Shown here: one piece after another, positions 16,356 to 64,000 of the stretch
How positions within the stretch are numbered: position 1 is the stretch's first letter
Layout: every line of letters begins with the position of its first letter
NCBI GenBank assembly: GCA_964402035.1
Contig: CAYOAM010000002.1
Span: 178,964-242,963, forward strand
Reading direction: 5' to 3'
Length of the DNA stretch: 64,000 nucleotides
DNA from: an uncultured Candidatus Saccharibacteria bacterium
Lineage (GTDB): Bacteria; Patescibacteriota; Minisyncoccia; Phycocordibacterales; UBA918
Notes under the pieces: generated by a model
What the model was told of the DNA's origin: nothing
What the model saw: only the letters and a program-made list of their open reading frames with translations
The model's database searches: none
Position numbers and translations under genes: made by a program

Positions 16356-16401
16356 AATTTATGAGTGCAAATAAAAAAGCCCACAGCGAGCTTCGCGAAG
16401 C

Positions 16402-16430
16402 ATAGTACTCGAATTGAGTGTGACTGTCAA
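16402..16430 (-). promoter_or_regulatory. Sigma70-like promoter (TTGACA-N17-TACTAT) upstream of rpsS, inside the 190-bp rplB-rpsS gap
   Basis: Minus strand reads ttgacagtcacactcaattcgagtactatgc. Confidence 0.5.
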
Positions 16431-16506
16431 CTAAAAGTTGCGATCGCAACCGTATACCTCACAATGACGCTGCGCTTGGTAAAAATGTTCAGGATTTCGA
16501 GGGTCA

Positions 16507-16543
16507 AATCGACAAAAAAACTACCCGATATCGGGTAGTTTTT
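16507..16543. terminator. Perfect palindromic hairpin with A/T runs on both sides, immediately downstream of rplB (intra-operon terminator/attenuator)
   Basis: aaaaaaactacccgatatcgggtagttttttt. Confidence 0.6.
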
Positions 16544-16547
16544 TTGT

Positions 16548-18483: not shown

Positions 18484-19110
18484 TTATAGGCCACGCACTT
18501 CAACTAACGTCCCCTTTCGACCAGGAATTGCTCCCGAAACTACTAGTACGTTTTCACTGGCATTCACCTGCAGGACTTTGAGGTTCTTCACCGTCACACG
18601 ATCGCCTCCCATGCGACCCGCCATGCGCATACCCTTGATAACGCGACCTCCAGCGCGACCACCGCCTCCAATAGAACCTGGTTCACGGAGTGAGTGCTTT
18701 TGACCATGACTTGCGCGACCACCACCAAAGCCATATCGCTTCACGACACCTTGAAAACCTTTTCCTTTTGAAATAGCAGATACAACAACCGTATCTCCTG
18801 GTGCAAAGACAGAAACATCAATCATGCCTCCGACCAAGGCTCCTTCGATATGCTCCTTGAGTTCAGCTTTTGGACGAAATTCACGTACAAATTTGTATGC
18901 ACCCTTGAGGTGACCGCGCATCGGCTTATTGACACGCTGCTCCTTCTGAGCGCCAGTTGCAACCTGTGCTGCAACATATCCATCCTTATCTGCGTTTTTT
19001 ACTTGTGTCACTTTCATCGGCTCCACTATCAAAATAGTGCCCGCTTGAACACGGCCAGAGGCGTCAAAAATCTGTGTCATCTGCAATTTTGTTCCGAGTA
19101 GGAATTTCAT
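18484..19110 (-). CDS. rplC: 50S ribosomal protein L3, first gene of the cluster (no rpsJ upstream)
   Basis: MKFLLGTKLQMTQIFDASGRVQAGTILIVEP. Confidence 0.9.
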   Translation of the reverse strand: MKFLLGTKLQMTQIFDASGRVQAGTILIVEPMKVTQVKNADKDGYVAAQVATGAQKEQRVNKPMRGHLKGAYKFVREFRPKAELKEHIEGALVGGMIDVSVFAPGDTVVVSAISKGKGFQGVVKRYGFGGGRASHGQKHSLREPGSIGGGGRAGGRVIKGMRMAGRMGGDRVTVKNLKVLQVNASENVLVVSGAIPGRKGTLVEVRGL

Positions 19111-19150
19111 GAAAATACTGAAATATCGTTATTTTAAGCCTTAAAATTGC

Positions 19151-19188
19151 AAAACCGCGAATGGCGCACGCGCCGCATTCGCGGTTTT
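19151..19188 (-). terminator. Rho-independent terminator (minus strand), about 310 nt downstream of the glycoside-hydrolase-like gene
   Basis: aaaaccgcgaatggcgcacgcgccgcattcgcggtttt. It is followed by a U-run on the minus strand. Confidence 0.65.
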
Positions 19189-19498
19189 GTGCCCATTGGT
19201 TCATGCCCGAATGAACGAAGTTCGTTGTAGGGTCGGAACCCTAAAACACTTCGTGTTCGGACAAGGACATAGGTCTTCTCTTAAAAGCTAGGGGTAGTAT
19301 ACAGATGATTTATAAAAACGCAACCTTAAGCAGAAAGCGTCGGGAACCCATTTGGTTCCCGACGCTTGATAGTGCCAAGTGACGCAACACTATGTCACTT
19401 GGAAAGGGCCTGGATCACCTCCCTCCCACCGAGTATGAGTTCGGGCTTCATCCGGCACCCCCTTTCTGTTGCAACCTCCGGCAGTATATCCTCAAAAC

Positions 19499-20794
19499 CT
19501 ATTCTTTTTCAAGTGCCCCTTCGGTATAAAGATTTGTGGGTGCCCAAAGCATAAAACTCGTGAGGCCAGTGTCATACGTTGCTTGAATCTGTGCACGCAC
19601 TTCGACAGGCCCGTAGTCTCCTCCATAATCAAAATCCTGTAACCATGGACGAAGCTTTTGAATATCGTATGCAGGTTTTGCATACAGTGCAGGAGTTGAT
19701 GTGCCAATGCGTTCATGCGTGAGAGCGACGACAGAGGTCGTGGTAGCGCTCGCGCGCCGTACCGCTGACGCCATTGCATAGTTCACAACCTTGTAGGGAT
19801 TACTGTTTGGATTACCGAGTCCCAAAAACGTTTTTGGATAATGCGATGGATAGACCATCGGTGCGACAAAATCAAAATATGGCAAAGCACGCTCCAAAAC
19901 CTGCCCAATCGAGAGGTCGTCAACGTTTGTTGCTGTCATGCCAAACAGGTCCGCGGATAGATAAGGTGTCGTGGTAGCACGACCCGTTCCTTCGTGTTTA
20001 ACGGACGCATAGCGTTCGGGGTCGCTCAATGCCGAATGCAAGTACATAAAAAATCGCTCTAGCGCCTCAGGCTTTGACGTCGTACCGGTAAATGGAAATG
20101 CAATGTCTTGCATATTGCCATCTGAAGGAAAACGCACATAATCAAAATTTAGTTCATCAAAACCAATGTTGTATGACTCAGCCCCCAGTGAAATAATATA
20201 GTCCCAGTGCGGCTTTGCCGATACCTCAATAAACGAGAGCCCTTTGTGATCACGCCACACCGTACCGTCACTCGCTTTCTTTACCGCAAGCTCGGGGTGA
20301 GACTTGGTGCGTAAGGGATCCTGAAATACTGAAATACGACCCATCACATAAATTCCTTTTTTATGTAACGATGCAATAAACTCCTGCATATCTCGCGCGC
20401 CACACTGCGCCTGCTGCCAAGCAGGCAACAGTTCAGGATCCTTTGGCAAAAATGAAATGGTACCCGAGTAGTCTTTAATATCGATAATCACGGCATTGAT
20501 TTCAGTTCGCTCAATCAGTGCCACAAGCTTATCGCGAAATGTTGGGGTCCCGGCAACGCAAGCGGTCATATAAATTGACTTTACCGCATTTGGCAACGGC
20601 ACATGCAGAACGACTGGCCGCGTGTCAGGAATGACTTTAGGGACTTCAGCAGGTTTTGTGGTCGTTGCCGTTTTGGGCAGCACCGCAACCGCACTATCGT
20701 ATGTAGTCGGCAACAAAGAAGGAAGTGCTGACGCAGATGCAGCAATCGCTCCAAGGAGCACGACCCCCATAATTGCTATGCTACGAAATGTCAT
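19499..20794 (-). CDS. Secreted TIM-barrel glycoside-hydrolase-like protein (DUF4015/GHL10-like)
   Basis: N-terminal signal peptide (MTFRSIAIMGVVLLGAIAASASA) plus a Thr/Pro linker. The body resembles putative glycosyl hydrolase-like domains. The family call is tentative. Confidence 0.4.
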   Translation of the reverse strand: MTFRSIAIMGVVLLGAIAASASALPSLLPTTYDSAVAVLPKTATTTKPAEVPKVIPDTRPVVLHVPLPNAVKSIYMTACVAGTPTFRDKLVALIERTEINAVIIDIKDYSGTISFLPKDPELLPAWQQAQCGARDMQEFIASLHKKGIYVMGRISVFQDPLRTKSHPELAVKKASDGTVWRDHKGLSFIEVSAKPHWDYIISLGAESYNIGFDELNFDYVRFPSDGNMQDIAFPFTGTTSKPEALERFFMYLHSALSDPERYASVKHEGTGRATTTPYLSADLFGMTATNVDDLSIGQVLERALPYFDFVAPMVYPSHYPKTFLGLGNPNSNPYKVVNYAMASAVRRASATTTSVVALTHERIGTSTPALYAKPAYDIQKLRPWLQDFDYGGDYGPVEVRAQIQATYDTGLTSFMLWAPTNLYTEGALEKE

Positions 20795-47050: not shown

Positions 47051-47070
47051 ACAAAAATAAAATCCTGTAA

Positions 47071-47177
47071 TCTGGCGACTACCTACTCTCCCCCTTGCGG
47101 AGTACCATCGGCTCAAGTGGGCTTAACTTCCGTGTTCGGAATGAGAACGGGTGTGACCCCACCGACAAATCACCAGA
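47071..47177 (-). rRNA. rrf: 5S rRNA, intact copy (about 107 nt)
   Basis: TCTGGTGATTTGTCGGTGGGGTCACACCCGTTCTCATTCCGAACACGGAAGTTAAGCCCACTTGAGCCGATGGTACTCCGCAAGGGGGAGAGTAGGTAGTCGCCAGA aligns with bacterial 5S. It is flanked by an 18-bp inverted repeat, ttacaRgattttattttt. Confidence 0.85.
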
Positions 47178-47663
47178 TTACAAGATTTTATTTTTGATGA
47201 TCATCTAATGATCGGCTGAGAACGTGGTACGGTAGCTCCCCGCGCTACCGTACCCCCTCCGACAAATCACCAGATGAGAACATTCAATTTTTGGTACGCT
47301 ACGTGGTTAAAAACCGCTCGCATACAAATTCATATCATATAAGCTTCTACTCCGCAAAACATTTTCAAAAACTAACGCAATGTTCGCATTCCGCGCCACA
47401 TAACAGTCTCTGTTATACAACTCAAAATACTGCGATGTGCAATATTCCTTGCCTTTCAAAGTTTTTCTTTGAAAGCCTTGGCAGTTTAGCATGACACTAA
47501 ACATCACTTATGTAACGCACACAAGCGTACTGCGATGTGCAATATTCCTTACAGGAACACATTCTATTAGTACACCTCGGCTCCACGCATTTCGGCGCTT
47601 CCACCTGGTGCCTATCAACCTGATAATCTCTCAGGGAATTTAATGATTCTTAATCTTAGAGCT

Positions 47664-47696
<33 letters not shown>

Positions 47697-47840
47697 ATTC
47701 CGAACATAGCTACAGGGCGGTGCCGTTGGCACGACAGCCCTCAGACCAGAGGTTCGTTCATTCCGGTCCTCTCGTACTAGGAACAAATCTCCTCAAGAAT
47801 CGACGCCTGCAGTAGATAGGAGACCAACCTGTCTCACGCA

Positions 47841-48105
47841 TCTTGGCTCTCACATTACTGTGAGGATTGGACTATATCTTCTTCCAAACAATTTGGAAGG
47901 TTGACGTTTAGTCTCTACGGGTGCTTATGGGCTTCCCTCGGTATTACCCTTTAACCAAAAAATAAATGGCTAAATTGGGTTCTTCCGATATAGTCAACTT
48001 TACTACAGAACATTGCTGTTCTGTGCCGCCGTACTGATGTCTTTTCGAATATAAGTGGTCACATATATTCTCCCCGGGTTTAGATTGGTTCAGGCAACGA
48101 ATTAC
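47841..48105 (-). mobile_element. 23S intron at the GAACG|GTGAGACAG junction (about 265 bp, no ORF)
   Basis: Exons are colinear with E. coli 23S near 2590-2600. The intron ends in G. Its 3' domain is homologous to the 16S introns. Confidence 0.65.
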
Positions 48106-48779
48106 TTCGCAACCTGAACGGTCTAAACCCAGCTCACGTAACTTTTTAATTGGCGAACAGCCAAACCCTTGGAAGCTGCTCCACCTCCAGGATAAGTTGA
48201 GCCGACATCGAGGTGCCGAACCGTGCCGTCGCTATGGACGCTTGGGCACGACTAGCCTGTTATCCCCAGGGTAACTTTTATCGGGTAATCTCCGGCCGCA
48301 TCTAACGCGTACCATCGGTTCACTATGCTCCGCTTTCGCGTCTGTTCGGCATCCACGCCTCACAGTCAAGCTGGCTTGTGCCATTACACTATCGACACGG
48401 TTTCCATTCGCGTCTAGCCAACCTTGAGACCCCTCCGTTACTTTTTAGGAGGGTAGCGCCCCACTAAAACTGCCTATCACGCACTGTCTCAGTGTAATTT
48501 TTTTACACTGGTTAGAAACTGCCCCAATAAAGAGTGGTATTTCACTGACGAGTCCACATCTCCCAAAAGAAATGCTTCAACCTCTCCCACCTATTCTACG
48601 CATCACAAGAACAGCCTCAATACGAAATTACAGTAAAGCTCCTGGGGTCTTTTCGTCTAACTGCAGGTACCCGGCATCTTCACCGGGATTGTATTTTCAC
48701 CGAGCAAGCCCTTGAGACAGTTCCCCAGTCATTACGCCATTCGTGCACGTCGGAACTTACCCGACAAGGAATTGCGCTC

Positions 48780-49000
48780 TTCTATTCCTCAAGAAGGACT
48801 CTGTCTTCATCTCAGAAACATTCTGAGCGCGTGACATATGGTCTCTTGTTGGTCACGTATTGACTAAGCGTACATTACTGTACGCAAGGTAGCTTTTTGA
48901 ATGGTCACCATGCGTATCTCGCACATGGGACACTGCGTCCATTTACCAATCCATAATCGTTCCAGTCATTTGATGCACTTCATTTCTGAAACGCACCAAA
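48780..49000 (-). mobile_element. 23S insertion/intron at the AGCGCAATTCCTTGTCGGG region (E. coli ~1920-1935), about 220 bp, no ORF
   Basis: The exon sequence caaggaattgcgct is followed by the insertion, then accttagaacgattatagttatcgc. Confidence 0.55.
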
Positions 49001-49751
49001 CCTTAGAACGATTATAGTTATCGCTGACATTGACCGGGGCTTACATAGCCCAGCAATACAGATTGCTCCATATCACCTTCCATGTTTGACCTTCCGGCAT
49101 TGGTCAGGCGTCACCCCCTATACATCCTCTTGCGAGTTCGCAGGGAGCTGTGTTTTTGGTAAACAGTTGCCAGGGAATCTTTCACTGCGGCCTCTCACCT
49201 TGCGGTGAGGAGGCAGGCCTTATCCCGAAGTTACGGCCGCTTTTTTGCCGAGTTCCTTAAGGGCCTCTCACTCGTTCGCCTTGGTCTACTCGACCTGATC
49301 ACCTGTGTCGGTTTGCGGTACGGAACCGTTGTGTATAACGTAGAAGATTTTCTAGGAAGCGCGCTCACTACTTTGACGTACCCGAAAGCACATCTACAGG
49401 CGACGCTCGGATCCGACATTAAAGTCAGAAGTGCGGATTTACCTACACCTCACCCTCACGCTACCAGCGACAATCCAATAAGTCGCAGTAACTACAGCAC
49501 TCCGTCTCTCCATAGAAACACAACCGTGTCATGGAATATTAACCATGTGTCCATCGCCTCCCCCATTCGGGATCGGCTTAGGCCCGACTAACCCTTGGCT
49601 GATCACCATCGCCAAGGAAACCTTGATCTTTCGGCGGGAGGGGCTCTCACCCTCCTTGCGGTTACTTGTGCCGGCATTCTCACTTCTGTACGCTCCACCG
49701 CGGCTCCCGCCTTGGCTTCATCGCAGAACAGAACGCTCTCCTACCACTCGT

Positions 49752-50130
49752 GGACTTCGTTGAAGATCGGATCAATGATCTCTACTGATCCGAAAAAATA
49801 TTTTGTGCTGTACCCCTGACAGGCATCGAACCTGCATCGTGCTTCTTATCTGGGTGTCTAATCCAGATGCACGGTTTTTCAAATTAAACTACAGGGGACT
49901 CACACATTAAAGAACAAGTCGGCGGACGATGTGTCGCGAACCGCTCGGTTGGAAGTTGGATTGCTCCGCAGTCCACCCGAAATGGGACACACCGTCCGCC
50001 AGGAGACGAGAAACGTTATTCAGGGGATTACCGCGGCTGCTGATACCCTGAACGTCTTCTCGCTCCTACAGAGGTTCTTCGCTGGCGTACAGCCAAACTT
50101 TGACGAACCTCTGTTTCAATATTTTTGTAC
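49752..50130 (-). mobile_element. 23S insertion (about 380 bp) replacing the helix-45-equivalent hairpin. It is bounded by a 12-bp inverted repeat, cgaagtccacga/tcgtggacttcg.
   Basis: It contains CAGCAGCCGCGGTAAT (16S 530-loop identity) at 50027-50042. GGATTAGACACCCAGATA (16S 790-loop-like) lies at 49858-49874, next to a tRNA-like T-arm GCAGGTTCGATGCCTGT. Confidence 0.6.
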
Positions 50131-51821
50131 AATCCTCAACGAAGTCCACGAATCCGCAGTTTCGGTACTATGCTTGAGCCCCGATCATCTTCGGCGCAGA
50201 AACTCTCGACGAGTGAGCTGTTACGCTATCTTTAAAGGATGGCTGCTTCTAAGCCAACCTCCTCGCTGTCAATGAATTTCCACTTCCTCAAGACGCACTG
50301 AGCATAGATTTAGGGACCTTAACTGGCGATCTGGGCTGTTCCCCTTTTGACTGATGGAGCTTATCCCCCATAGTCTAACTGCCGCGCTATAACTCTCGGT
50401 ATTCGGAGTTTGATAGGTCCCACGAGATTTCTCCCTGTTGAGACCTTCCAGTGCTCTACCCCCAAGAGGACCACGCGACGCCAACCCAAAAGCTGTTTCG
50501 GAGAGAACCAGCTATTACGGAATTCGATTAGCTTTTCACTCCATACCACAAATCATCCGATGGTTTTGCACGGCCAACCGGTTCGGGCCTCCCCACATCT
50601 TTCGATGTGGTTCACCCTGTTCATGGCAAGCTCATCCCGCTTCGGGTCGTACTCTATCCCTATATTCGCGCTATTCACACTCGCTTTCGCTCTGCCTCCG
50701 GGGGTTCACCCCTTAGACGAAGGAATACAGTACACTCGCCGGCTCATTCTTCAATAGGCACGCGGTCACCAGGCTTGCGCCCAGCTCCCACTCTTTGTAA
50801 GCATACGGTTTCAGATCTATTTCACTGTCCTCACCGGACTGTTTTTCACCTTTCCCTCACGGTACTCGTTCACTATCGGTCTCTTGGAATATTTAGCCTT
50901 AGGAGTTAGTGCTCCCAGATTCATTCGAGCTATTCATGTCTCGAACTACTCAGGAACGGCAACAAGAAAGTGGTAGATAATTTCGCATACGGGACTATTA
51001 CCCACTGGGGTCACTCTTTCCAGAGTGTTCCGCTATCATCACCATTTATTTCTTTCCTCAACTAAATGACGTCGCCGCCCTACAACCCCGACCATGTAAA
51101 CACGATCGGTTTGGGCTTCTCCCGTTTCGCTCGCCGCTACTAAGGGAATTGCAAGTGTCTTCTTCCTGACCATAATGGCGTCGCGGTATTGCTACCGCGA
51201 CATTCGATCAGAAAGAAAACACCCTTTATTGCTTTCTTTTCCTCCGGGTACTGAGATGTTTCACTTCCCCGGGTACGCGACCAACAACAAGTGTTGGACC
51301 TCTATCGTAGATAGAGAGGTTTCCCCATTCGGACATTCTCGGGTCGCAGATTGCTTGGCATCTAACCGAGACTTATCGCAGCCATGCTACGTCCTTCATC
51401 GCTTCACAAGAGCCTAGGCATCCACCGTACGCTCTTCATTCCTGTAAGGAAGACCACACACCGTGTTGCAACATAGAATTTGTGACAATATGAAATTTGT
51501 TTTTCAAAATTTTGTTTCCTCAATGTTCACTCGTTCGGAAAAGAAAATGCAAGCACTTTCTTTTCCTCACTCGCTCCATTGAAAAGGAATACTACACATC
51601 TCCTGTCTTACAGATGGTTTTTCTTCCATTACCTAAATGCTAAACACCGCTGTTTAGTTTTCAATTATGTTGTTTCTCGCATGCAGCACATAGTTTTGGG
51701 AAAAGACCCGCAAAAACAAACATGCATTACATGCGATCCGTATGTGCAACAAACACACATACGATTTGCTCGTATACACCTACATGATATGAAATTGTCA
51801 ACGAACGGGTGTTTCCCTGAG

Positions 51822-55015: not shown

Positions 55016-55381
55016 TTACTTGAGCGTTACCTTGGCACCAGCTTCTTCAAGTTTCGCCTTCAACGCTTCTGCATCCTCCTTCTTCATACCTTCTTTCACC
55101 ACTGCTGGTGCGGCGTCCACCATGTCCTTTGCTTCTTTAAGTCCAAGACCGAGTACCTCCTTCACTACCTTGATAACAGCAATCTTTGTTGCGCCACCTT
55201 CAGTGAGCTCAACAGTAAAGGTGCTCTGTCCTCCTTCGTCGCCTCCACCCGCTGCTGCTGGAGCTGCTGCTGCAACAGCTGCTGCTGAAACTCCCCACTT
55301 CTCTTCAATCGCTTTAACGAGTGTATTAAGTTCAAGTACGGTCATCTTCTCTACTGCTTCAATAATTTGTTCTTGTGTCAT
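55016..55381 (-). CDS. rplL: 50S ribosomal protein L7/L12
   Basis: [46 protein letters not shown]...EAGAKVTLK. Confidence 0.9.
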
Positions 55382-55462
55382 ACGAATAAGTTATATTTAA
55401 TTTTATTAGTCAATCTGAGTGCCCGTTCAAAAATCGCTATGTGGGTTTTTGAACCGAAAAAG

Positions 55463-55954
55463 CTATTTTGCTTTTTCTTCTGAAACCTTACTCAACACCA
55501 CTGCAAAACGCTGACGTGGTGAATTGATAAGCTGTGCGAACATGCCGCGGAGAACTGGTAATGCTGGGATCGATGCGATCTCAGTCATCTCTGCCTTGTT
55601 GCGGTACACTCCTGCGAACACGCCTCCAAGAATAGACACTGCATCCTTAAACTTCTTTTCAAATTCACGCACTTTTTGTGCAGGTGCAATCTGATCAGCG
55701 CTATAGGCAAGTGCTACTTCTCCCGGAAGTTCTGGCATCGTGCCTGTGTACCCTCCTTCGTCCAACGCGCGTCCGATTAAAGTCTTTTTTGCGACCAAGT
55801 ATCCGACACCATTTTCCCGAAACACTTTACGCATTTCAGTCGTCTCCTTTCCCTTAAGTCCGGTAAATTTTACGAAGACTAGTGTCTCTGCACTCTTGCG
55901 CGCAGCGACAAGTTTTCCTAAAATCTCCTGCTTTTTTGCTTTCGTAATAGCCAT
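55463..55954 (-). CDS. rplJ: 50S ribosomal protein L10
   Basis: MAITKAKKQEILGKLV... from an internal Met. It sits upstream of rplL. Confidence 0.8.
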   Translation of the reverse strand: MAITKAKKQEILGKLVAARKSAETLVFVKFTGLKGKETTEMRKVFRENGVGYLVAKKTLIGRALDEGGYTGTMPELPGEVALAYSADQIAPAQKVREFEKKFKDAVSILGGVFAGVYRNKAEMTEIASIPALPVLRGMFAQLINSPRQRFAVVLSKVSEEKAK

Positions 55955-56162
55955 AGGTGTAGTTTGTAATAATAAAACAGATAGACTATTCGACCGTCCC
56001 GATACCATTAAAAGTAGTGGGATCTCGGCAGGGTACGCAACGCGTGTTTATTGGGTGAACCTTTCGACTCACACCGCCCTACTGTCTTTGATCTGTCGAG
56101 AGGTACTATATCAGAAAGATACAAAAAGAAAAGAGCGGCTCGCTTTAAACGAAACCGCCCAT

Positions 56163-56777
56163 CTACCACCCTCTACGAACCTTTCTAAATAAGAAGAGGT
56201 ACTGACCCGCTGAAACGATTGAAGCTACAAATGCTGCCACGAAGAGTATTTTTCCCACGTGTGTAATGGCCGCAAAATATTCATGGGCACCAAGGATCAG
56301 AAAACCGAGACTCACAAACAAGAGTCCTGTTTTCCATTGTGCCAAAAGAAGTACCGGGATCTTCTTTGCAAGATCTCGATACCACTCACGCAGAAACGAG
56401 ATCAGCATCTCCCGGCCAATAAGTCCGACAGAAATCCAAAACTCCCATCCACGTGGAGAGAGGTGAAAAGTCTCAACAATAAAGAGCAGTGCCAGAATTC
56501 CCAACACAAACCCTTTGTCGGTGAGTTCATCGAGCCTCTTTCCATTTGGAGAGAAGTCCTGCCGATGACGAGCAAGCCTTCCATCAATCCAGTCAGTAAT
56601 GGCAGCCAAGGCGAACAGCACGGACGCAAGGATCGGACTTACAAACATGTATGCCGCATAAATGATCGGCACCGACCATGCACGCGCCCACGACAAGCGA
56701 TCAGGAGTAATCCATCGAGGTGTCCCGTCAAGCATCTGTGCGTGTAATGCCTGCAATCGATCCTTAAGCGAGCTCAT
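56163..56777 (-). CDS. CDP-alcohol phosphatidyltransferase (PgsA-like)
   Basis: DWIDGRLARHRQDFSPNGKRLDELTDK matches D-x2-DG-x2-AR...G-x3-D-x3-D. Multiple TM helices. Confidence 0.75.
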   Translation of the reverse strand: MSSLKDRLQALHAQMLDGTPRWITPDRLSWARAWSVPIIYAAYMFVSPILASVLFALAAITDWIDGRLARHRQDFSPNGKRLDELTDKGFVLGILALLFIVETFHLSPRGWEFWISVGLIGREMLISFLREWYRDLAKKIPVLLLAQWKTGLLFVSLGFLILGAHEYFAAITHVGKILFVAAFVASIVSAGQYLFLFRKVRRGW

Positions 56778-56868
56778 GTAACCCCCTCATATGAAAACGC
56801 CACTCTGTTGTGACGTAGTGAACATTCTAAAGAAGAGACTACGTGGAAATAGAAGCTCTGTCAAAAAA

Positions 56869-57348
56869 TTATCCCTCCACTTCTTTTTTCATTTGTTCTG
56901 CTTTCCAGCCGATCATGTTGGCAAGGAGTTGGAGTATACTGCCCAGTCCCGCAACTGCAAGAAAGAGAATCGGAAAGTACGCATATGAGGTGAGGTAGTA
57001 AAAGAAAACAACGGTTGCACCCGCCCACATCCCGATGCACCACGGGCAGGACAGCAGATCCGCCAGAGTGCGGCGTGGTCCAGACTCTGGTTTTTCGAGT
57101 GTACGTTTTCCTCGAGCACTTTCCACCACATCATAAAACTGTTCACGGAAAAACGCGGTAATCTTGTCGTAGACAAAAAGTCGCGTGAGTCGCAGCGTCG
57201 CAAGCGAGAGTATGAGAAATTCCATGAGCGTAATCCCCCCCATCGGTCGTGATGCTTCGGATGAAAGTATGATCATCCCTGAAACGACAAACGACACAAA
57301 CAACAGCGAGAAGAGGACATTCCACACATATTGATCTGAAATGCGCAT
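56869..57348 (-). CDS. DUF1360 family membrane protein
   Basis: LRLTRLFVYDKITAFFRE ... CPWCIGMW hallmark. Confidence 0.65.
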   Translation of the reverse strand: MRISDQYVWNVLFSLLFVSFVVSGMIILSSEASRPMGGITLMEFLILSLATLRLTRLFVYDKITAFFREQFYDVVESARGKRTLEKPESGPRRTLADLLSCPWCIGMWAGATVVFFYYLTSYAYFPILFLAVAGLGSILQLLANMIGWKAEQMKKEVEG

Positions 57349-57540
57349 ACGAATACTTTATCTTATTCTGTACCAACAATAAACACAATGAACAGTGTGA
57401 CGGTGAGAACAGTGAGGAAACCAAAAAAGAACTTATAAAAAGTCTTGTTGAACAAATTCATAGGTATAGTATACAAGCACCCGTAGATTAATAGAAATTA
57501 TTAGAGCAAAAAATCTGGAGCTGAGATACGATTCAAAATA

Positions 57541-57882
57541 TTATTCTGCAATCAAAAGACCTGCTTTTTTGAGTGTTTCTAAAACTGTCACGCGATTTGC
57601 TCTTTGTATCAGACGCACATCGCGCACGCTCCAATCAAGAGAACGCAATTGATCCGCCAGTATGGCCCCCTGTATGTTTTTCTCCGCAACAAGCACTTCA
57701 AATGGGTACCCTTTTACTTTTGAAGTAATAGGACACATGAGCGCAAGGTGTGTTTTCTTGTTATACGATTTTGGAGATAGTACAAGCGCCGGACGAGTTT
57801 TTGATTGTTCATGACCACGTGTTGGGTTTAGATCCACCCACACTACATCTCCCCTATCGGGTATATACATTTTTTTTACCAT
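57541..57882 (-). CDS. mazF: Type II toxin, PemK/MazF family endoribonuclease
   Basis: YIPDRGDVVWVDLNPTRGHEQSKTRPALVLSPKSYNKKTHLALMCPITS. Confidence 0.8.
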   Translation of the reverse strand: MVKKMYIPDRGDVVWVDLNPTRGHEQSKTRPALVLSPKSYNKKTHLALMCPITSKVKGYPFEVLVAEKNIQGAILADQLRSLDWSVRDVRLIQRANRVTVLETLKKAGLLIAE

Positions 57883-61839: not shown

Positions 61840-64000
61840 ATGGCAGTAAAAAAGAAGAAGGAGAAACAACCACTTTTTGATGATCTCGCGCCGCATACCA
61901 AGCAGGCGGTTGCTGCTATTTTTTTTGGCGTCTTGGGGATTTTCTTTGTGCTCTCATCACTGCAAATCGCAGGGGCTGCAGGCAACTTTATGCACACCGC
62001 ACTTTCCTATCTATTTGGGATCGGCTTTATATTGGCCCCCCTCGCATGCCTCCTCTATGTCATGGCACTTCTCCGACCCCGAGAGAGCGGCTTCGTGAGC
62101 ATCTCAAAAATGCTTGGCATCACAGTACTCCTCCTTTCACTCCTCGGGCTTATAGCGCTCTATGACGAAGCACAAGGTGGCATGGTGGGATTTCTCGTTA
62201 TGAAACCACTCGGCTACCTCTTTGGCGCTATAGGCGCTGGTGTTGTGCTCTCTGCACTCGGACTGATCAGCCTGCTACTTATATTGAATGCTGGGCTTCG
62301 GCTACCGCAGTTTCTACGAAAGAAAGAGCCGCCTGTGGCTGACGCAATACCGACGATCGAACCTTTGACTGCAGTGATTGAGCGTGGGGAACTACCCGAG
62401 GAAAAGGAGGAAGCGACGCCAGAAGCTGACGAGCCCAAAAAAAAGACGCTGCGAGAACGAGTTCTGGGCACACAAGATTTTGTGGTGGAGAGCTTCCGTG
62501 GACCCTATGCTCCCCCACCACTGTCGCTCGTCGAAAAGGATCGCGGAAAATCAAAGGGCGGTGATATAAAAGCGCAGTCAAATATTATTCGACGCACCCT
62601 ACAAAACTTTGGCATCATCGTTGAGATGGATGAGATTTCTGTAGGACCTGCCGTCACACGCTTCACCCTCAAACCTGCCGAAGGAGTACGTATTGCAAAA
62701 ATTGTGAGTCTCCAGAGTGACATTGAGCTTGCACTTGCCGCCGGTACCATTCGTATCGAAGCACCAATACCCGGGAAATCACTGGTGGGTATTGAAGTAC
62801 CCAACACACAAAAGACACTCGTGGGTATGGGCTCTCTCCTCTCCTCCCCTGAGTTTATGGATTCACCTAAACCACTCCTTGTAGCACTCGGCAAAGATAT
62901 TTCAGGTCAATCGATCTTTGCCAACGTCGCAAAGATGCCCCACCTCCTCATCGCAGGCACCACAGGCTCAGGAAAATCGGTCACGATTCATGCACTCATC
63001 ACCTCACTCTTGTTCCGCAACTCACCCGAACAACTCCGCTTTATCCTCATAGACCCGAAGCGTGTTGAGCTCACGCTCTACAACAACATCCCCCACCTCC
63101 TAACACCCGTTATTACCGATGCAAAAAAGGCTATCCTATCACTCAAGTGGGCGGCAAATGAAATGGAACGTCGATATGAAATTCTTCAGCACGAGAAGGT
63201 GCGCGATATTAGCTCATATCATGACACTATCTATAAGCCAGCCCTCAAAAAATTTGAAGCCCGTGCAGCAAAAGCTGATAGGGATGACTCTGAAGAGGAG
63301 ACCGAAAAACTTCCTGAACCACTTCCATATATTGTCATCATTATTGACGAGCTTGCAGACATCATGCAGGCTTACCCTCGCGAACTTGAAGCCTCGATTG
63401 TGCGCTTGGCTCAAAAAAGCCGTGCCGTCGGTATTCACCTCCTCCTCGCAACTCAGCGACCAGAAGTAAAGGTTATCACTGGTCTCATCAAGGCAAACAT
63501 GCCGGGACGTATTGCGCTGCGGGTAAACTCTCAGATTGATTCACGGGTGATCATCGATGGTCCGGGGGCAGAAAAACTGCTCGGTTACGGTGATATGCTC
63601 TATATATCGAGTGAAGTTTCAAAACCTCTCCGTGTACAATCAGCCATGATCTCTGAAGCGGAAGTAAAAAATATCGTCTCCTATCTCAAAAACCAAGACT
63701 CTGCTGCAACCCTCGACTCTATTGATCTTGATCTTGGCAACAAAGAGCATGGGGATGCGATGTTTGAATCCTTGACTGAAGATGAGGACGACGATGAACT
63801 CTATGAAGATGTCAAAGCGGTGATACTAAAGGACAAGAAAGCGTCTACATCCTATATCCAACGTCGCTTTCGGATCGGCTACTCGCGCGCAGCACGTTTA
63901 ATCGACATGCTCGAAGAGCGCGGTGTCATTGGAAAACAAGACGGCTCCAGACCGCGAGAAATACTTGCTGCAAGCGAAGAACATGAGGCTGCTGGTGGAA
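61840..64000 (+). CDS. ftsK: DNA translocase FtsK/SpoIIIE, 3'-partial (runs off the window end)
   Basis: Manual translation from ATG 61840 gives N-terminal TM helices, then IAGTTGSGKSVTIHALITSLL (Walker A), IVIIIDELADIM (Walker B) and a gamma-domain-like C-terminus (KASTSYIQRRFRIGYSRAARLIDMLEERGVI). No stop before 64000, so it is absent from the ORF track. Confidence 0.85.
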   Translation, partial: MAVKKKKEKQPLFDDLAPHTKQAVAAIFFGVLGIFFVLSSLQIAGAAGNFMHTALSYLFGIGFILAPLACLLYVMALLRPRESGFVSISKMLGITVLLLSLLGLIALYDEAQGGMVGFLVMKPLGYLFGAIGAGVVLSALGLISLLLILNAGLRLPQFLRKKEPPVADAIPTIEPLTAVIERGELPEEKEEATPEADEPKKKTLRERVLGTQDFVVESFRGPYAPPPLSLVEKDRGKSKGGDIKAQSNIIRRTLQNFGIIVEMDEISVGPAVTRFTLKPAEGVRIAKIVSLQSDIELALAAGTIRIEAPIPGKSLVGIEVPNTQKTLVGMGSLLSSPEFMDSPKPLLVALGKDISGQSIFANVAKMPHLLIAGTTGSGKSVTIHALITSLLFRNSPEQLRFILIDPKRVELTLYNNIPHLLTPVITDAKKAILSLKWAANEMERRYEILQHEKVRDISSYHDTIYKPALKKFEARAAKADRDDSEEETEKLPEPLPYIVIIIDELADIMQAYPRELEASIVRLAQKSRAVGIHLLLATQRPEVKVITGLIKANMPGRIALRVNSQIDSRVIIDGPGAEKLLGYGDMLYISSEVSKPLRVQSAMISEAEVKNIVSYLKNQDSAATLDSIDLDLGNKEHGDAMFESLTEDEDDDELYEDVKAVILKDKKASTSYIQRRFRIGYSRAARLIDMLEERGVIGKQDGSRPREILAASEEHEAAGG

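Follow-up and report, generated by a model that had tools for sequence, protein, structure and literature searches.

We found that the 388-bp gap 5' of rplC (ribosomal protein L3) in an ultra-small CPR/Paceibacteria bacterium probably holds two adjacent, independently conserved RNA elements, both on the minus strand like rplC: an operon leader (unit B) and, farther upstream, a small unit (unit A). We give this reading a probability of roughly 0.6. Anatomy, conservation, covariation and strand were observed for both units. The interval and its neighbours within the window (the whole 64,000-nucleotide stretch of DNA that was analysed) carry the following features:

18484-19110, minus strand: rplC (uL3), gene 1 of the operon, without an upstream Shine-Dalgarno (SD) sequence
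19499-20794, minus strand: DUF4015 putative glycoside hydrolase, 431 aa, the gene 5' of the interval
19151-19190, plus-strand reading: palindromic hairpin
19213-19221 / 19248-19258, plus-strand reading: hairpin arms gaacgaagt / acttcgtgttc around gggtcggaaccc
19337-19348 / 19354-19365, plus-strand reading: hairpin arms gcgtcgggaacc / ggttcccgacgc
19375-19383 / 19394-19402, plus-strand reading: hairpin arms ccaagtgac / gtcacttgg
19409-19426, plus-strand reading: 16S-end-like stretch cctggatcacctccctcc

The hairpins and the motif GGATCACCTCC (19412-19422) lay where the original prediction had placed them, and its description of the ribosomal cluster as S10-less held up, with rpsJ not detected by tblastn within the 64-kb window. 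ARAGORN called no tRNA or tmRNA in the region, the sole such gene in the window being tRNA-Ile (29308-29381). The fold of the interval beat dinucleotide shuffles on the minus strand (z = -5.3) and on the plus strand (z = -6.6), with 0 of 100 shuffles equally good in either case. The terminator of the upstream gene had been proposed as a boundary of the region; instead, the sole terminator-like hairpin 3' of the DUF4015 gene (19365-19337) sits within the interval. This strong hairpin with its U-rich tail, followed directly by the promoter-like sequence TTGCGT-16-TATACT, marks the split point, and the argument for two units is that in relatives only the promoter-to-rplC portion is conserved. Both promoters and both terminators of the two units are predictions: a simple terminator scan called neither unit's hairpin, and the promoter scan returned no leader promoter. 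Covariation of the whole interval among close relatives was uninformative because these (L081 and L082) are identical copies; the nearest other genomes stand at 71-76% protein identity.

Unit B most likely serves as an attenuator through which an r-protein autoregulates rplC-rplD-rplW-rplB, a four-gene operon delimited by a terminator and a new promoter between rplB and rpsS. Its parts, all on the minus strand, are:

19111-19290 (to 19323 with promoter), minus strand: unit B, structured 5' leader of rplC-rplD-rplW-rplB, ~180 nt
19323-19318 and 19301-19296, minus strand: predicted sigma-70-like promoter, -35 TTGCGT, 16-nt spacer, -10 TATACT
19267-19277, minus strand: invariant AAGACCUAUGU (AAGACCUAYGU region), 5' strand of the closing pairings
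19199-19268, minus strand: P1 hairpin, differing between relatives in both length and sequence
19186-19200, minus strand: invariant junction ACCAAUGGGCACAAA, hallmark of the leader, single copy in the window
19152-19189, minus strand: P2 long hairpin AAAACCGCGAAUG..CAUUCGCGGUUUU, then GCAAUUUU, candidate attenuator (terminator)
19134-19142, minus strand: 3' strand AAGGCUU of the P0 closing helix, from cofolding

Along the leader the order is AAGACCUAYGU, P1, ACCAAUGGGCACAAA, the long P2 with its U-run and the closing helix. The promoter's CTGTATACT box is kept in L001-L004 and L177-L184. The partner of AAGACCUAUGU is the junction AUGGG and/or the segment 3' of P2; the CCUA/UGGG pairing is invariant and hence outside the reach of covariation. 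In the window, P1 bears a ~45-nt extension, the gaacgaagt/acttcgtgttc stem, and P2, which the simple scan passed over as a terminator, is trailed by UUUUGCAAUUUU. Cofolding pairs AAGGCUU of P0 with AGCUUU/AAG-CCU at the leader 5' end, that is, across P2, and equivalent pairings in L001-L004, L177 and L179 are built from different sequences.

The presence of the leader followed the arrangement of the operon. CCA[A/C]TGG occurred at most 260 nt upstream of rplC in 17 of 50 CPR loci: in none of the 23 with rpsJ adjacent to rplC versus 17 of the 27 without adjacent rpsJ. Covariance model R2 matched the window at 19147-19277 on the minus strand (74.8 bits, E 1e-12) and found one sense-strand copy per locus, always just 5' of rplC (13 long-form loci) and nowhere else in 732 kb, save weak reverse-strand matches on the palindromic P2. 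The three-helix P0/P1/P2 layout was recovered in 9 of 9 homologues, each folded alone. In RNAalifold, 10 of 22 pairs retained pairing despite changes on both sides, most clearly in P2, where six base pairs showed compensatory changes; the P1 columns of the MAFFT/RNAalifold alignment are partly misregistered, and P0 was judged from per-sequence cofolding alone. Compensatory changes among homologues, which the original prediction had named as a check, thus appeared in leader P2 and also in the motif stem of unit A described below.

In more distant relatives, P1 and GACCAAUGG are followed by an apparent antiterminator/terminator pair directly before the start codon. Read by eye, these short forms have a CAAUGGn/nCCAUUG antiterminator that competes with a GC hairpin and U5-7, and in L005, L007, L011 and L020 the U-run of the hairpin ends ~8-13 nt 5' of the ATG or overlaps it. 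Such placement weighs against a fairly improbable alternative, also raised by the original prediction as an independent non-coding RNA ending at a 19151-19188 terminator, in which unit B would be a small RNA ending at 19189-19152 and rplC would be transcribed separately, perhaps leaderless, from a promoter between hairpin and ATG. P2, flanked by A- and U-runs, does resemble a terminator; CAGTAT lies 4 nt 5' of the rplC ATG, in an organism where many genes carry a -10-like box 4-10 nt 5' of ATG; and in L180 ~145 nt separate P2 from the ATG. Against this, a separate rplC promoter has no room in the short forms because hairpin and U-run abut the start codon, the 13 long-form loci have no conserved promoter-like sequence between P2 and ATG, the element always lies directly 5' of rplC, and P0 joins the 5' end of the leader to sequence beyond P2.

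The autoregulatory leader of the original prediction is well supported for the rplC-proximal ~190 nt (19296-19111), which have their own promoter and a sequence and fold conserved in relatives, and not for the GGAUCACCUCC/GGAGGUGAUCC motif, which lies in a separate unit ending at 19365-19337, before the leader promoter. Within the leader, ACCAAUGGGCACAAA together with AAGACCUAYGU is the likely recognition surface, and the junction the likely protein-binding site. From this layout we infer transcription, a regulator and an effect on expression. A sigma-70-type promoter would drive the ~180-nt leader of the four-gene operon. When uL4, uL3, uL2 or uL23 is in excess over rRNA, the encoded protein would bind the junction, by analogy with L4 and the E. 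coli S10 leader; the bound protein would then favour P2 and its U-run as a terminator, or occlude the unstructured AU-rich start region, and operon expression would be lowered.

The E. coli S10-operon leader is autoregulated by L4 through NusA-dependent attenuation and translational repression. Like it, unit B is a structured 5' leader, of ~150-180 nt, before an operon encoding L3, L4, L23 and L2, with conserved helices upstream and a stable hairpin plus U-run a few tens of nucleotides before the first start, and binding by an encoded protein would be expected. Unlike it, unit B has no sequence or covariance-model similarity to that leader (no Rfam match at E up to 10), its operon begins with rplC rather than rpsJ and stops after rplB, and its host lacks SD-based initiation. 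No Rfam r-protein leader family matched at gathering score, or at E up to 10 in 19000-19650, and the leaders of relatives likewise had no such match. The Rfam check that had been suggested for the interval thus turned up nothing relevant, whether the window was scanned at gathering score or the region with E up to 10, and we found no r-protein feedback leader for the Candidate Phyla Radiation in Rfam 15 or the searchable literature. Unit B is a new candidate feedback-control leader, absent from Rfam. At the sequence level, rRNA mimicry by the leader gained no support and was dropped, a further difference from the S10 leader: the only rRNA near-match was GACCAAUGC in 23S (49097-49105), such matches numbering 6 versus 13 expected by chance, and longer invariant leader strings matched no rRNA. 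A sequence upstream in L178/L179 that had looked like a homologue of unit A proved to be an ORF of 148 aa, rich in GC and with part of it deleted in L179, and was rejected.

The translation system of the organism frames unit A. Helix 45 is complete in the resident 16S, which ends in a diverged tail of its own, GGAUUAAUUCC; since its 3' end reads ...GUCGUGGAUUAAUUCCAAUCGG, the canonical GGAUCACCUCC is absent, as the original prediction had observed. A GGAGG-type SD sequence stood upstream of 0 of 58 candidate ORF starts, many of which look leaderless, and relatives likewise lacked SD sequences at their starts. These judgements come from direct inspection of start regions, which replaced a crude tally of SD-linked ORF starts that failed to separate SD users from non-users. 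One contig documents both anti-SD loss and genome-wide SD absence, in agreement with the anti-SD loss already published for a Parcubacteria subgroup (PMC9297842).

Against this background, unit A most likely represents a small non-coding RNA, or else a degenerating copy of such an RNA. Its features are:

19328-19479 (to 19512 with promoter), minus strand: unit A, candidate small RNA, ~150 nt
19512-19507 and 19488-19483, minus strand: predicted promoter, -35 TTGAAA, 18-nt spacer, -10 TATACT, 10/12 in the consensus scan
19466-19458, minus strand: purine-rich SD-like box GAAAGGGGG, with an AUG at 19451-19449 that opens an unconserved 18-codon ORF
19412-19422, minus strand: tail-complementary 11-mer GGAGGUGAUCC (GGATCACCTCC on the plus strand)
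19375-19402, minus strand: hairpin CCAAGUGAC / GUCACUUGG, 9 bp, 10-nt loop, 9 nt 3' of the 11-mer
19328-19365, minus strand: terminator-like end GCGUCGGGAACC-AAAU-GGGUUCCCGACGC, then UUUCUGCUU

The -35 box overlaps the final codons of the DUF4015 gene, and unit A had no Rfam match at gathering score or at E up to 10. GGATCACCTCC has one exact copy in the window, and 3 matches with at most one mismatch versus 0.73 expected; 5 of 100 shuffles also reach 3 near-matches, so the motif alone is not significant. What makes it significant is that two related genomes, L086 and L186, conserve it at the orthologous position. The predicted duplex of the 11-mer has -30.5 kcal/mol with the canonical 16S tail versus -13.2 with the organism's own tail.

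Unit A is orthologous to small units in L086 and L186, both located after DUF4015 orthologues. These share the promoter position (TTGAGA-17-TAGAGT in L186, at the same offset from the DUF4015 stop), the 5' GAGGUUG..CAG, the SD-like box and AUG, GGAGGUGAUC, AUCAA and the terminator; the 5' GAGGUUGCAACAG of unit A aligns with their GAGGUUGUCUCAUCAG. In both, GAAAGGAGGUGAUC is accompanied by a covarying hairpin whose loop reads CUAACCM, and they finish, as does the unit in L203, in GC-rich hairpins and U-runs at the equivalent place. SD-like box and AUG equivalents occur in L086, L186 and L180, with differing peptides and frames. The clear CPR orthologues number two, plus the doubtful L180. A gene for a TraG/VirD4-type coupling protein neighbours the unit at the orthologous loci, whereas in three related genomes (L083, L084/85 and L187) the DUF4015 gene is followed by no unit of this kind.

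Beyond these genomes the motif recurs in intergenic regions of viral contigs, within a promoter-to-terminator unit in L203 and as two copies in L188; among the contigs bearing it, L193 and L203 are SD-less. Model R1 describes it as GGAGGUGAUC(C), or a variant that keeps the complementarity, and a 6-bp hairpin with loop CUAACC(A/C) placed 12-17 nt after GAUC; the variants GGGGGUGAUCC and GGAUGGUGAUCC are still complementary to the canonical tail. In the hairpin alignment 96% of cells are paired and 9 are double-change cells versus 2.5 in shuffles, a count reached by 0 of 500 shuffles, and slid controls collapse. Flanking-gene orientation and G.U pairs favour the GGAGG strand as RNA. The window copy has the exact linear element at 19422-19412 and scores 15.1 bits (E 0.003-0.02); R1 aligns its linear part only; the CUAACCM hairpin is missing, and the window hairpin at that position has the loop AUAGUGUUGC instead.

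The motif module is not in Rfam (E up to 10 on L086, L101, L177-L182 and ten viral loci), blastn against cultured-phage genomes gave no full-length match, and in the literature the 11-mer turned up only in papers employing the universal 16S reverse primer. A metagenome scan with GGAGGTTGC-N40-70-GGAGGTGATCC yielded 90 matches, nearly all in coding sequence or reverse-complemented 16S ends; in the alignment with L086, the GGAGGTTGC of the window corresponds to the 5' end of that unit rather than to the second GGAGGTTGC there. A hammerhead-like CUGAUGA on the L086 reverse strand was dropped for want of Rfam support.

Every functional statement on unit A we infer from this conservation and complementarity. 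The module would bind a 16S-type 3' tail, or a protein recognising that sequence, and would act like an SD sequence that starts no translation. AUG, GUG and UUG are all absent 4-12 nt past GGAGG in the window (UGAUCCAGGCCCUUUCC); because there is no start codon at a usable distance, unit A would bind 30S without starting translation. The closest analogue is STAB-SD of the Bacillus thuringiensis cry3A mRNA (Agaisse & Lereclus 1996; Mathy et al. 2007; summarised in PMC4113751), which is located close to the 5' end of a long transcript and shields that transcript from RNase J1, yet this clade uses no SD sequences. Both have an SD-like GAAAGGAGG complementary to the 16S 3' end, and neither has a usable start codon. 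Unlike STAB-SD, the sequence here belongs to a short unit that ends in a terminator, or lies between phage genes, and is coupled to a conserved hairpin, and the 16S of the window organism lacks CCUCC, with no extended complementarity to the resident tail. A role through the organism's own ribosomes is doubtful because its own tail pairs weakly and the clade appears SD-less.

In layout only, the motif resembles the phage lambda nut site (boxA plus boxB): a linear element, a short spacer and a covarying hairpin with a conserved loop, just past a stop codon between phage genes. It differs from nut in having no sequence relation to boxA/boxB, and an antiterminator protein was not found.

Among alternatives for unit A, the one that survives best, itself unlikely, is that it simply forms the 3' untranslated region of the DUF4015 gene together with that gene's terminator, with GGAGGUGAUCC as a leftover of no present function. 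No other terminator follows the gene before 19365, the CUAACCM hairpin is missing from the window copy, which scores 15 bits only, the organism has neither a canonical anti-SD nor SD use, and L083, L084/85 and L187 do without the unit. What argues against a mere tail is retention: with the compared proteins only ~70% identical, neutral DNA should be randomised, and still the exact 11-mer, promoter position, GAGGUUG..CAG and AUCAA-terminator layout persist. In L086, moreover, the DUF4015 gene has a large hairpin and U-run to itself, and ~200 nt separate these from the unit, which starts at a promoter of its own.

The motif could instead act at the DNA level, for example as a site recognised by, or bounding, a mobile element, or as the target of a homing endonuclease or recombinase, that moves between phages and CPR, with unit A an insertion remnant; we regard this as improbable. 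It would fit the varied positions of the motif in phage head/packaging modules, its place next to an HNH endonuclease gene in L193 and, judged by eye, a group II intron maturase-like protein in L197, the two direct copies that flank a small moron-like ORF in L188, its presence or absence among closely related DUF4015 loci, and the resemblance of GGTGATCC to GGCTAACC, often with a second GATC/TATC after it. No recombinase, on the other hand, lies consistently next to the motif, several copies fall within promoter-to-terminator units, and the stem covaries with one-sided G.U pairs (3 versus 1 by strand), which argues for RNA rather than a DNA site.

We dropped the very unlikely reading that unit A encodes a small protein, either as the 18-codon ORF from AUG 19451 or in the Gly-Gly-Asp-Pro frame GGA GGU GAU CC, because frames are inconsistent. 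An SD-like box does lie 3-6 nt 5' of the AUG in the window, L086, L186 and L180, and L086 and L186 have ..PLKGGD(P/H)LI..G* in common in one frame with an in-frame 3-nt indel. The AUG-initiated peptides, however, are unrelated among members, counted from the AUG or from GGCUAACC, the motif falls into three different frames across members, the window GGDP frame has no AUG, and the organism uses SD at no other gene.

A still more speculative idea, to which we give little credence, is that the tail-complement and CUAACCM module is a hitherto undescribed RNA device that captures ...GGAUCACCUCCUUA-tailed small subunits: phages would use it on their hosts, and a stand-alone Paceibacteria small RNA would discriminate foreign ribosomes, since that tail is absent from the ribosomes of the Paceibacteria in question, which do not use SD. 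The window copy would then be a diverged member of the capture module, and a capture RNA could be a tool of an episymbiotic or parasitic lifestyle, directed at the ribosomes of a bacterial or archaeal host.

Least credible are the readings that the whole 388 nt form one long rplC leader or one non-coding RNA, for which the good fold of the entire interval speaks, although a hairpin, U-rich tail and promoter lie inside it, conservation breaks there and the homologous unit in L086 adjoins a TraG-like gene, not rplC, or that the motif survives from a 16S 3' end that was relocated. The relic idea, also put forward in the original prediction, draws on 13 nt, CTGGATCACCTCC, that equal the canonical 16S end and are missing from the resident 16S. 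Like the 16S 3' end (helix 45 plus GGAUCACCUCCUUA), the plus strand has these 13 identical nucleotides (CUGGAUCACCUCC). Unlike it, the interval has no helix 45 equivalent, GGAA loop or further similarity, no SSU or other rRNA model matched (19000-19650, E up to 10), and the resident 16S is complete with its own tail. A relic would need the plus strand, probably untranscribed; promoter, terminator and the G.U pairs of homologues point to the opposite, GGAGG strand as the RNA, and the motif belongs to a recurrent family in relatives and phage contigs. The 11-mer is neither part of the rplC leader nor a relocated rRNA end. Binding of a plus-strand GAUCACCUCC RNA by the Era GTPase was likewise dropped, with strand evidence opposite and Era missing from most CPR (PMC10582724).

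Ribosomal protein feedback leaders have been described mainly in well-studied phyla. A leader that appears where rpsJ parted from rplC shows reduced, SD-less genomes rebuilding control of ribosome synthesis, and unit B offers a defined RNA for finding which protein regulates. Unit A exposes an unannotated covarying motif, common to phage contigs and SD-less bacteria, that is a perfect complement of the 16S tail shared universally. Should it bind ribosomes, the motif would represent a novel type of RNA module directed at them; otherwise it is still a new structured motif that merits a family entry.

The interval between rplC and the DUF4015 gene (19111-19498) folded much better than its dinucleotide shuffles on both strands (z = -5.3 and -6.6), and its two halves were conserved independently of each other in relatives. 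Read on the minus strand, it would hold two units, a candidate small RNA (unit A) and an rplC leader (unit B).

19499-20794, minus strand: gene for a 431-aa DUF4015 putative glycoside hydrolase, flanking the interval on one side
19512-19483, minus strand: predicted promoter of unit A, TTGAAA-18-TATACT, after the DUF4015 stop codon
From that promoter to the hairpin at 19365-19328, minus strand: unit A, RNA-like sequence of ~150 nt
19365-19328, minus strand: predicted terminator, a 13-bp hairpin followed by UUUCUGCUU
19323-19296, minus strand: second predicted promoter, TTGCGT-16-TATACT, driving unit B
19189-19152, minus strand: long hairpin that, with a U-rich stretch, ends unit B (~180 nt)
41 nt beyond this hairpin and U-rich stretch, minus strand: ATG of rplC
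18484-19110, minus strand: rplC, flanking the interval on the other side

Simple promoter and terminator scans flagged the distal promoter (19512-19483) as their sole element; all promoters and terminators here are predictions. All the hairpins of the original prediction, and its string cctggatcacctccctcc (19409-19426), were found where it had placed them.

The string belongs to unit A and, read on the minus strand, contains a motif complementary to the canonical 16S 3' tail. Its 11-mer, GGATCACCTCC, is unique in the window as an exact match, and the motif alone is statistically unremarkable because its three matches with up to one mismatch (0.73 expected) were equalled in 5 of 100 shuffles. 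The case for unit A rests instead on two clear orthologues. Among the nearest DUF4015 orthologues (69-72% identity), a homologous unit follows the gene directly and in the same orientation at two loci of CPR relatives, L186 and L086. At L186, the promoter TTGAGA-17-TAGAGT has its -35 box in the last DUF4015 codons, exactly as in the window, and is followed by GAGGUUGUCUCAAUCAG, a purine-rich box with AUG, UUCCGCUGAAAGGAGGUGAUC, the hairpin GCUGGG-CUAACCC-CCCAGC, AAUCAA and a terminator. At L086, the same unit lies ~200 nt further from the DUF4015 gene, and a TraG/VirD4-like gene comes next, not rplC. Common to all three are the promoter position, GAGGUUGCAACAG, the purine box and AUG, an exact GGAGGUGAUCC, a hairpin 9 nt later, AUCAA and the terminator. 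In three other related genomes the unit is absent, and the TraG-like gene comes straight after the DUF4015 gene. The conserved neighbourhood in L083-L085, L086 and L187 runs MurC, TP_methylase, small ORF, DUF4015 and TraG/VirD4-like coupling protein. Because the rplC operon follows DUF4015 in the window, replacing the TraG/VirD4-like gene, a rearrangement brought unit A beside the rplC leader. An independent non-coding RNA, as originally proposed, is plausible for the distal unit ending at 19337-19365, not for one ending at 19151-19188; a relic of a relocated rRNA 3' end is not supported.

About a dozen further copies of the motif occur in viral contigs, searched with GGAGGTGATC-N-GGCTAACC and then GGTGATCC-N-GGCTAACC. 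Five copies start no more than 3 nt from the stop codon of an upstream ORF, four of them with UAAGGAGGUGAUCC; in L101/L193, L249 and, for one frame, L086, the motif itself contains the UGA of the ORF. A short spacer, often with AUCU, separates the linear element from a 6-bp hairpin with a CUAACC(A/C) loop and a covarying stem (variants include CGGGG/CCCCG, GCAGG/CCUGC, CGAGG/CCUCG and GCCGGG/CCCGGC). Over nine sequences, 96% of stem cells were paired versus 77% in shuffles, and nine cells carried two-sided changes versus 2.5, a count reached in none of 500 shuffles; all slid controls collapsed. The GGAGG strand is favoured as the RNA by its G.U pairs (three, versus one favouring the other strand), by the strand on which neighbouring phage genes are encoded, and by how promoters and terminators are oriented in L203, L086, L186 and the window. 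The variants GGGGGUGAUCC (one of two copies in viral contig L188) and GGAUGGUGAUCC (L203 and L249) can still complement the canonical 16S tail by way of a G.U pair or a bulge of one base. A conserved peptide was rejected, the motif being read in three different frames. No Rfam entry for the motif was found, nor any copy in cultured-phage genomes by blastn. Only the linear part of the window copy matched the motif model (15 bits, E 0.003-0.02), its hairpin loop being different; it is an orthologue of true members without being a full member.

The phage copies belong to head and packaging modules, where portal, protease, head-tail adaptor and HNH genes are close by. In L188, two direct copies (848-904 and 1300-1353) flank a 124-aa ORF just upstream of the portal gene; one has GGGGGUGAUCC and the loop CUAAUCC on the same stem as the other, and the ORF has a signal-peptide-like N-terminus, an arrangement resembling a moron or cassette. 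Viral contig L203 (~700-850) has the motif between two small phage genes, inside a unit of ~115 nt that carries a TATACT box and a terminator of its own and resembles in layout the CPR units of L086, L186 and the window. Carrier contigs L194-L196 show clear Shine-Dalgarno (SD) use; L193 and L203 are without it.

The original prediction was correct that the resident 16S (31846-34526, minus strand) lacks the canonical terminus, a loss already known from a Parcubacteria subgroup (PMC9297842). Helix 45 is complete, followed by GGAUUAAUUCC in place of GGAUCACCUCC, and the gene ends (31846-31900, minus strand) in GUGGAUUAAUUCC, without CCUCC. Of 58 candidate ORF starts in the window, none is preceded by a GGAGG-type or SD sequence, and in many a TATAAT-like box stands 4-10 nt 5' of the ATG, which suggests that leaderless mRNAs are the rule here. 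The nearest relatives' contigs show the same start-region pattern, and the 16S tail and SD-less starts fit the anti-SD-less subgroup of PMC9297842. rplC is 66-67% identical to those of Kaiserbacteria, Nomurabacteria and Paceibacteria MAGs, and the window is part of a 461.7-kb contig of assembly ERZ3430527. SD-like octamers (AGGAGGTG three times, GAGGTGAT and GAAAGGAG) cluster within 1.3 kb at 62100-63500 (minus strand), unusual in a genome otherwise without them; a Gly/Arg/Glu-rich coding region or foreign DNA could account for them. The genes for 16S (31846-34526, 2,681 nt) and 23S (47070-51448, 3,903 nt) are enlarged and not linked to each other, and a group I intron is present in both, at 33768-34048 and 47848-48091 respectively; the best-scoring SSU model for the 16S is archaeal, and a lone tRNA-Ile(GAT) (29308-29381) lies 2.5 kb downstream of it. 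rplJ-rplL (55463-56008 and 55016-55381, minus strand) is preceded by a CDP-alcohol phosphatidyltransferase gene, not rplK-rplA, with a DUF1360 gene and a MazF/PemK toxin gene (57541-57882) further upstream (region 55016-57882). This neighbourhood is compatible with the uL1-lacking group that overlaps anti-SD-less lineages (PMC9297842).

All motif copies share complementarity to the universal 16S 3' tail, and none is followed by a start codon at a distance suited to initiation. Among known systems they come closest to STAB-SD, an SD that does not initiate translation but keeps a 30S subunit on an mRNA (PMC4113751). Against such a role, the organism's own tail is predicted to pair with the motif only weakly, and the whole clade appears SD-less. 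With the window's own tail, the predicted duplex reaches -13.2 kcal/mol versus -30.5 with the canonical tail. As two of the three substitutions in the tail are C to U, the weaker value still ranks among the top 0.4% of 30-mers drawn at random from the window. Three readings were considered for unit A: its RNA could depend on this weaker pairing or on a protein; the unit could be decaying in this lineage, as loss of the CUAACCM loop in the window copy would suggest; or it could act on ribosomes other than the organism's own, a speculative and very improbable reading. Possibly the motif acts at the DNA level, as a mobile-element site.

The long form of unit B, found in the window, the four best GTDB relatives (L001-L004) and the seven nearest metagenomic relatives (listed as L177, L178/L179, L180/L181, L182, L183 and L184/L185), runs from a -10 box through AGCUUU..AAGACCUAYGU, a variable hairpin P1 and (G/A)ACCA(A/C)UGGGCACAAA to P2, the long hairpin, with A/U runs closing. 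More distant relatives (L005, L007, L011, L018 and L020) have a shorter version, P1 followed by GACCAAUGG; by eye, its CAAUGGn can pair with a downstream nCCAUUG overlapping a GC-rich hairpin and U5-7, the U-run lying directly 5' of the start codon. Nine homologues folded singly gave one three-helix layout, in which P0 pairs the 5' AGCUUU/GACCUA segment with sequence 3' of P2 through nucleotides that differ between genomes (folds of single sequences and inspection by eye are the basis for P0 and for the short-form alternative pairings). RNAalifold on 11 sequences gave 22 pairs, 10 of which stay paired although both partners have changed, P2 being the clearest case, and it also suggests that invariant CCUA pairs with invariant UGGG. 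The proposed Rfam check returned no match for the leader, in the window or in relatives. The long-form covariance model found exactly one sense-strand copy per locus, always just upstream of rplC, and no other sense-strand match in 732 kb. We found no paper combining ribosomal leaders with CPR names in the searchable literature.

Leader motif and adjacent rpsJ did not occur together: among 50 CPR loci, rpsJ lay immediately upstream of rplC in 23, none with the leader motif; 17 had the motif without adjacent rpsJ, and 10 had neither. rpsJ was not detectable anywhere in the window. Several genomes appear to have taken up insertions at the site upstream of the leader: the window has DUF4015 and unit A there, L177 has YkuD-type genes, and L180 has ~1 kb in which few genes are called. 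Two strains, L178 (1763-2209) and L179 (363-857), have identical rplC and differ by a deletion within a GC-rich 148-aa ORF directly upstream of the leader promoter.

Inside the 'S10 operon', a gap separates rplB from rpsS.

16356-16547, minus strand: the 192-nt rplB-rpsS gap
Within it, minus strand: predicted perfect terminator, AAAAAAACUACCCGAUAUCGGGUAGUUUUUUU
After the terminator, minus strand: predicted promoter, TTGACA-17-TACTAT
After the promoter, minus strand: short hairpin and U-run before the rpsS ATG

A small leader belonging to rpsS itself is possible, and comparable gaps occur in L178, L180 and L182. We found no rRNA look-alike of the rplC leader's invariant segments. The 23S at 49097-49105 (minus strand), a stretch tentatively equated with E. 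coli ~1830-1850 close to the uL2 site (H66-H67), has the sequence GCCUGACCAAUGCCGGAAGGUC and shares GACCAAUG with the leader's invariant junction, a sharing without statistical support; uL2 is one of the four operon proteins. From its position, conservation, structure, and hairpin and U-run before the first codon, the likeliest reading of unit B is an autoregulatory attenuator bound by an r-protein, for which the L4-controlled S10 leader of E. coli is the precedent. An r-protein leader was one of the possibilities originally raised for the whole interval; the reading applies to the proximal half, and the distal half with its '16S-like' motif lies outside. Because a terminator and promoter are predicted between rplB and rpsS, the 'S10' cluster is probably divided between two or more transcription units, and the leader would control rplC-rplD-rplW-rplB only; its candidate regulator should be uL4, uL3, uL2 or uL23.
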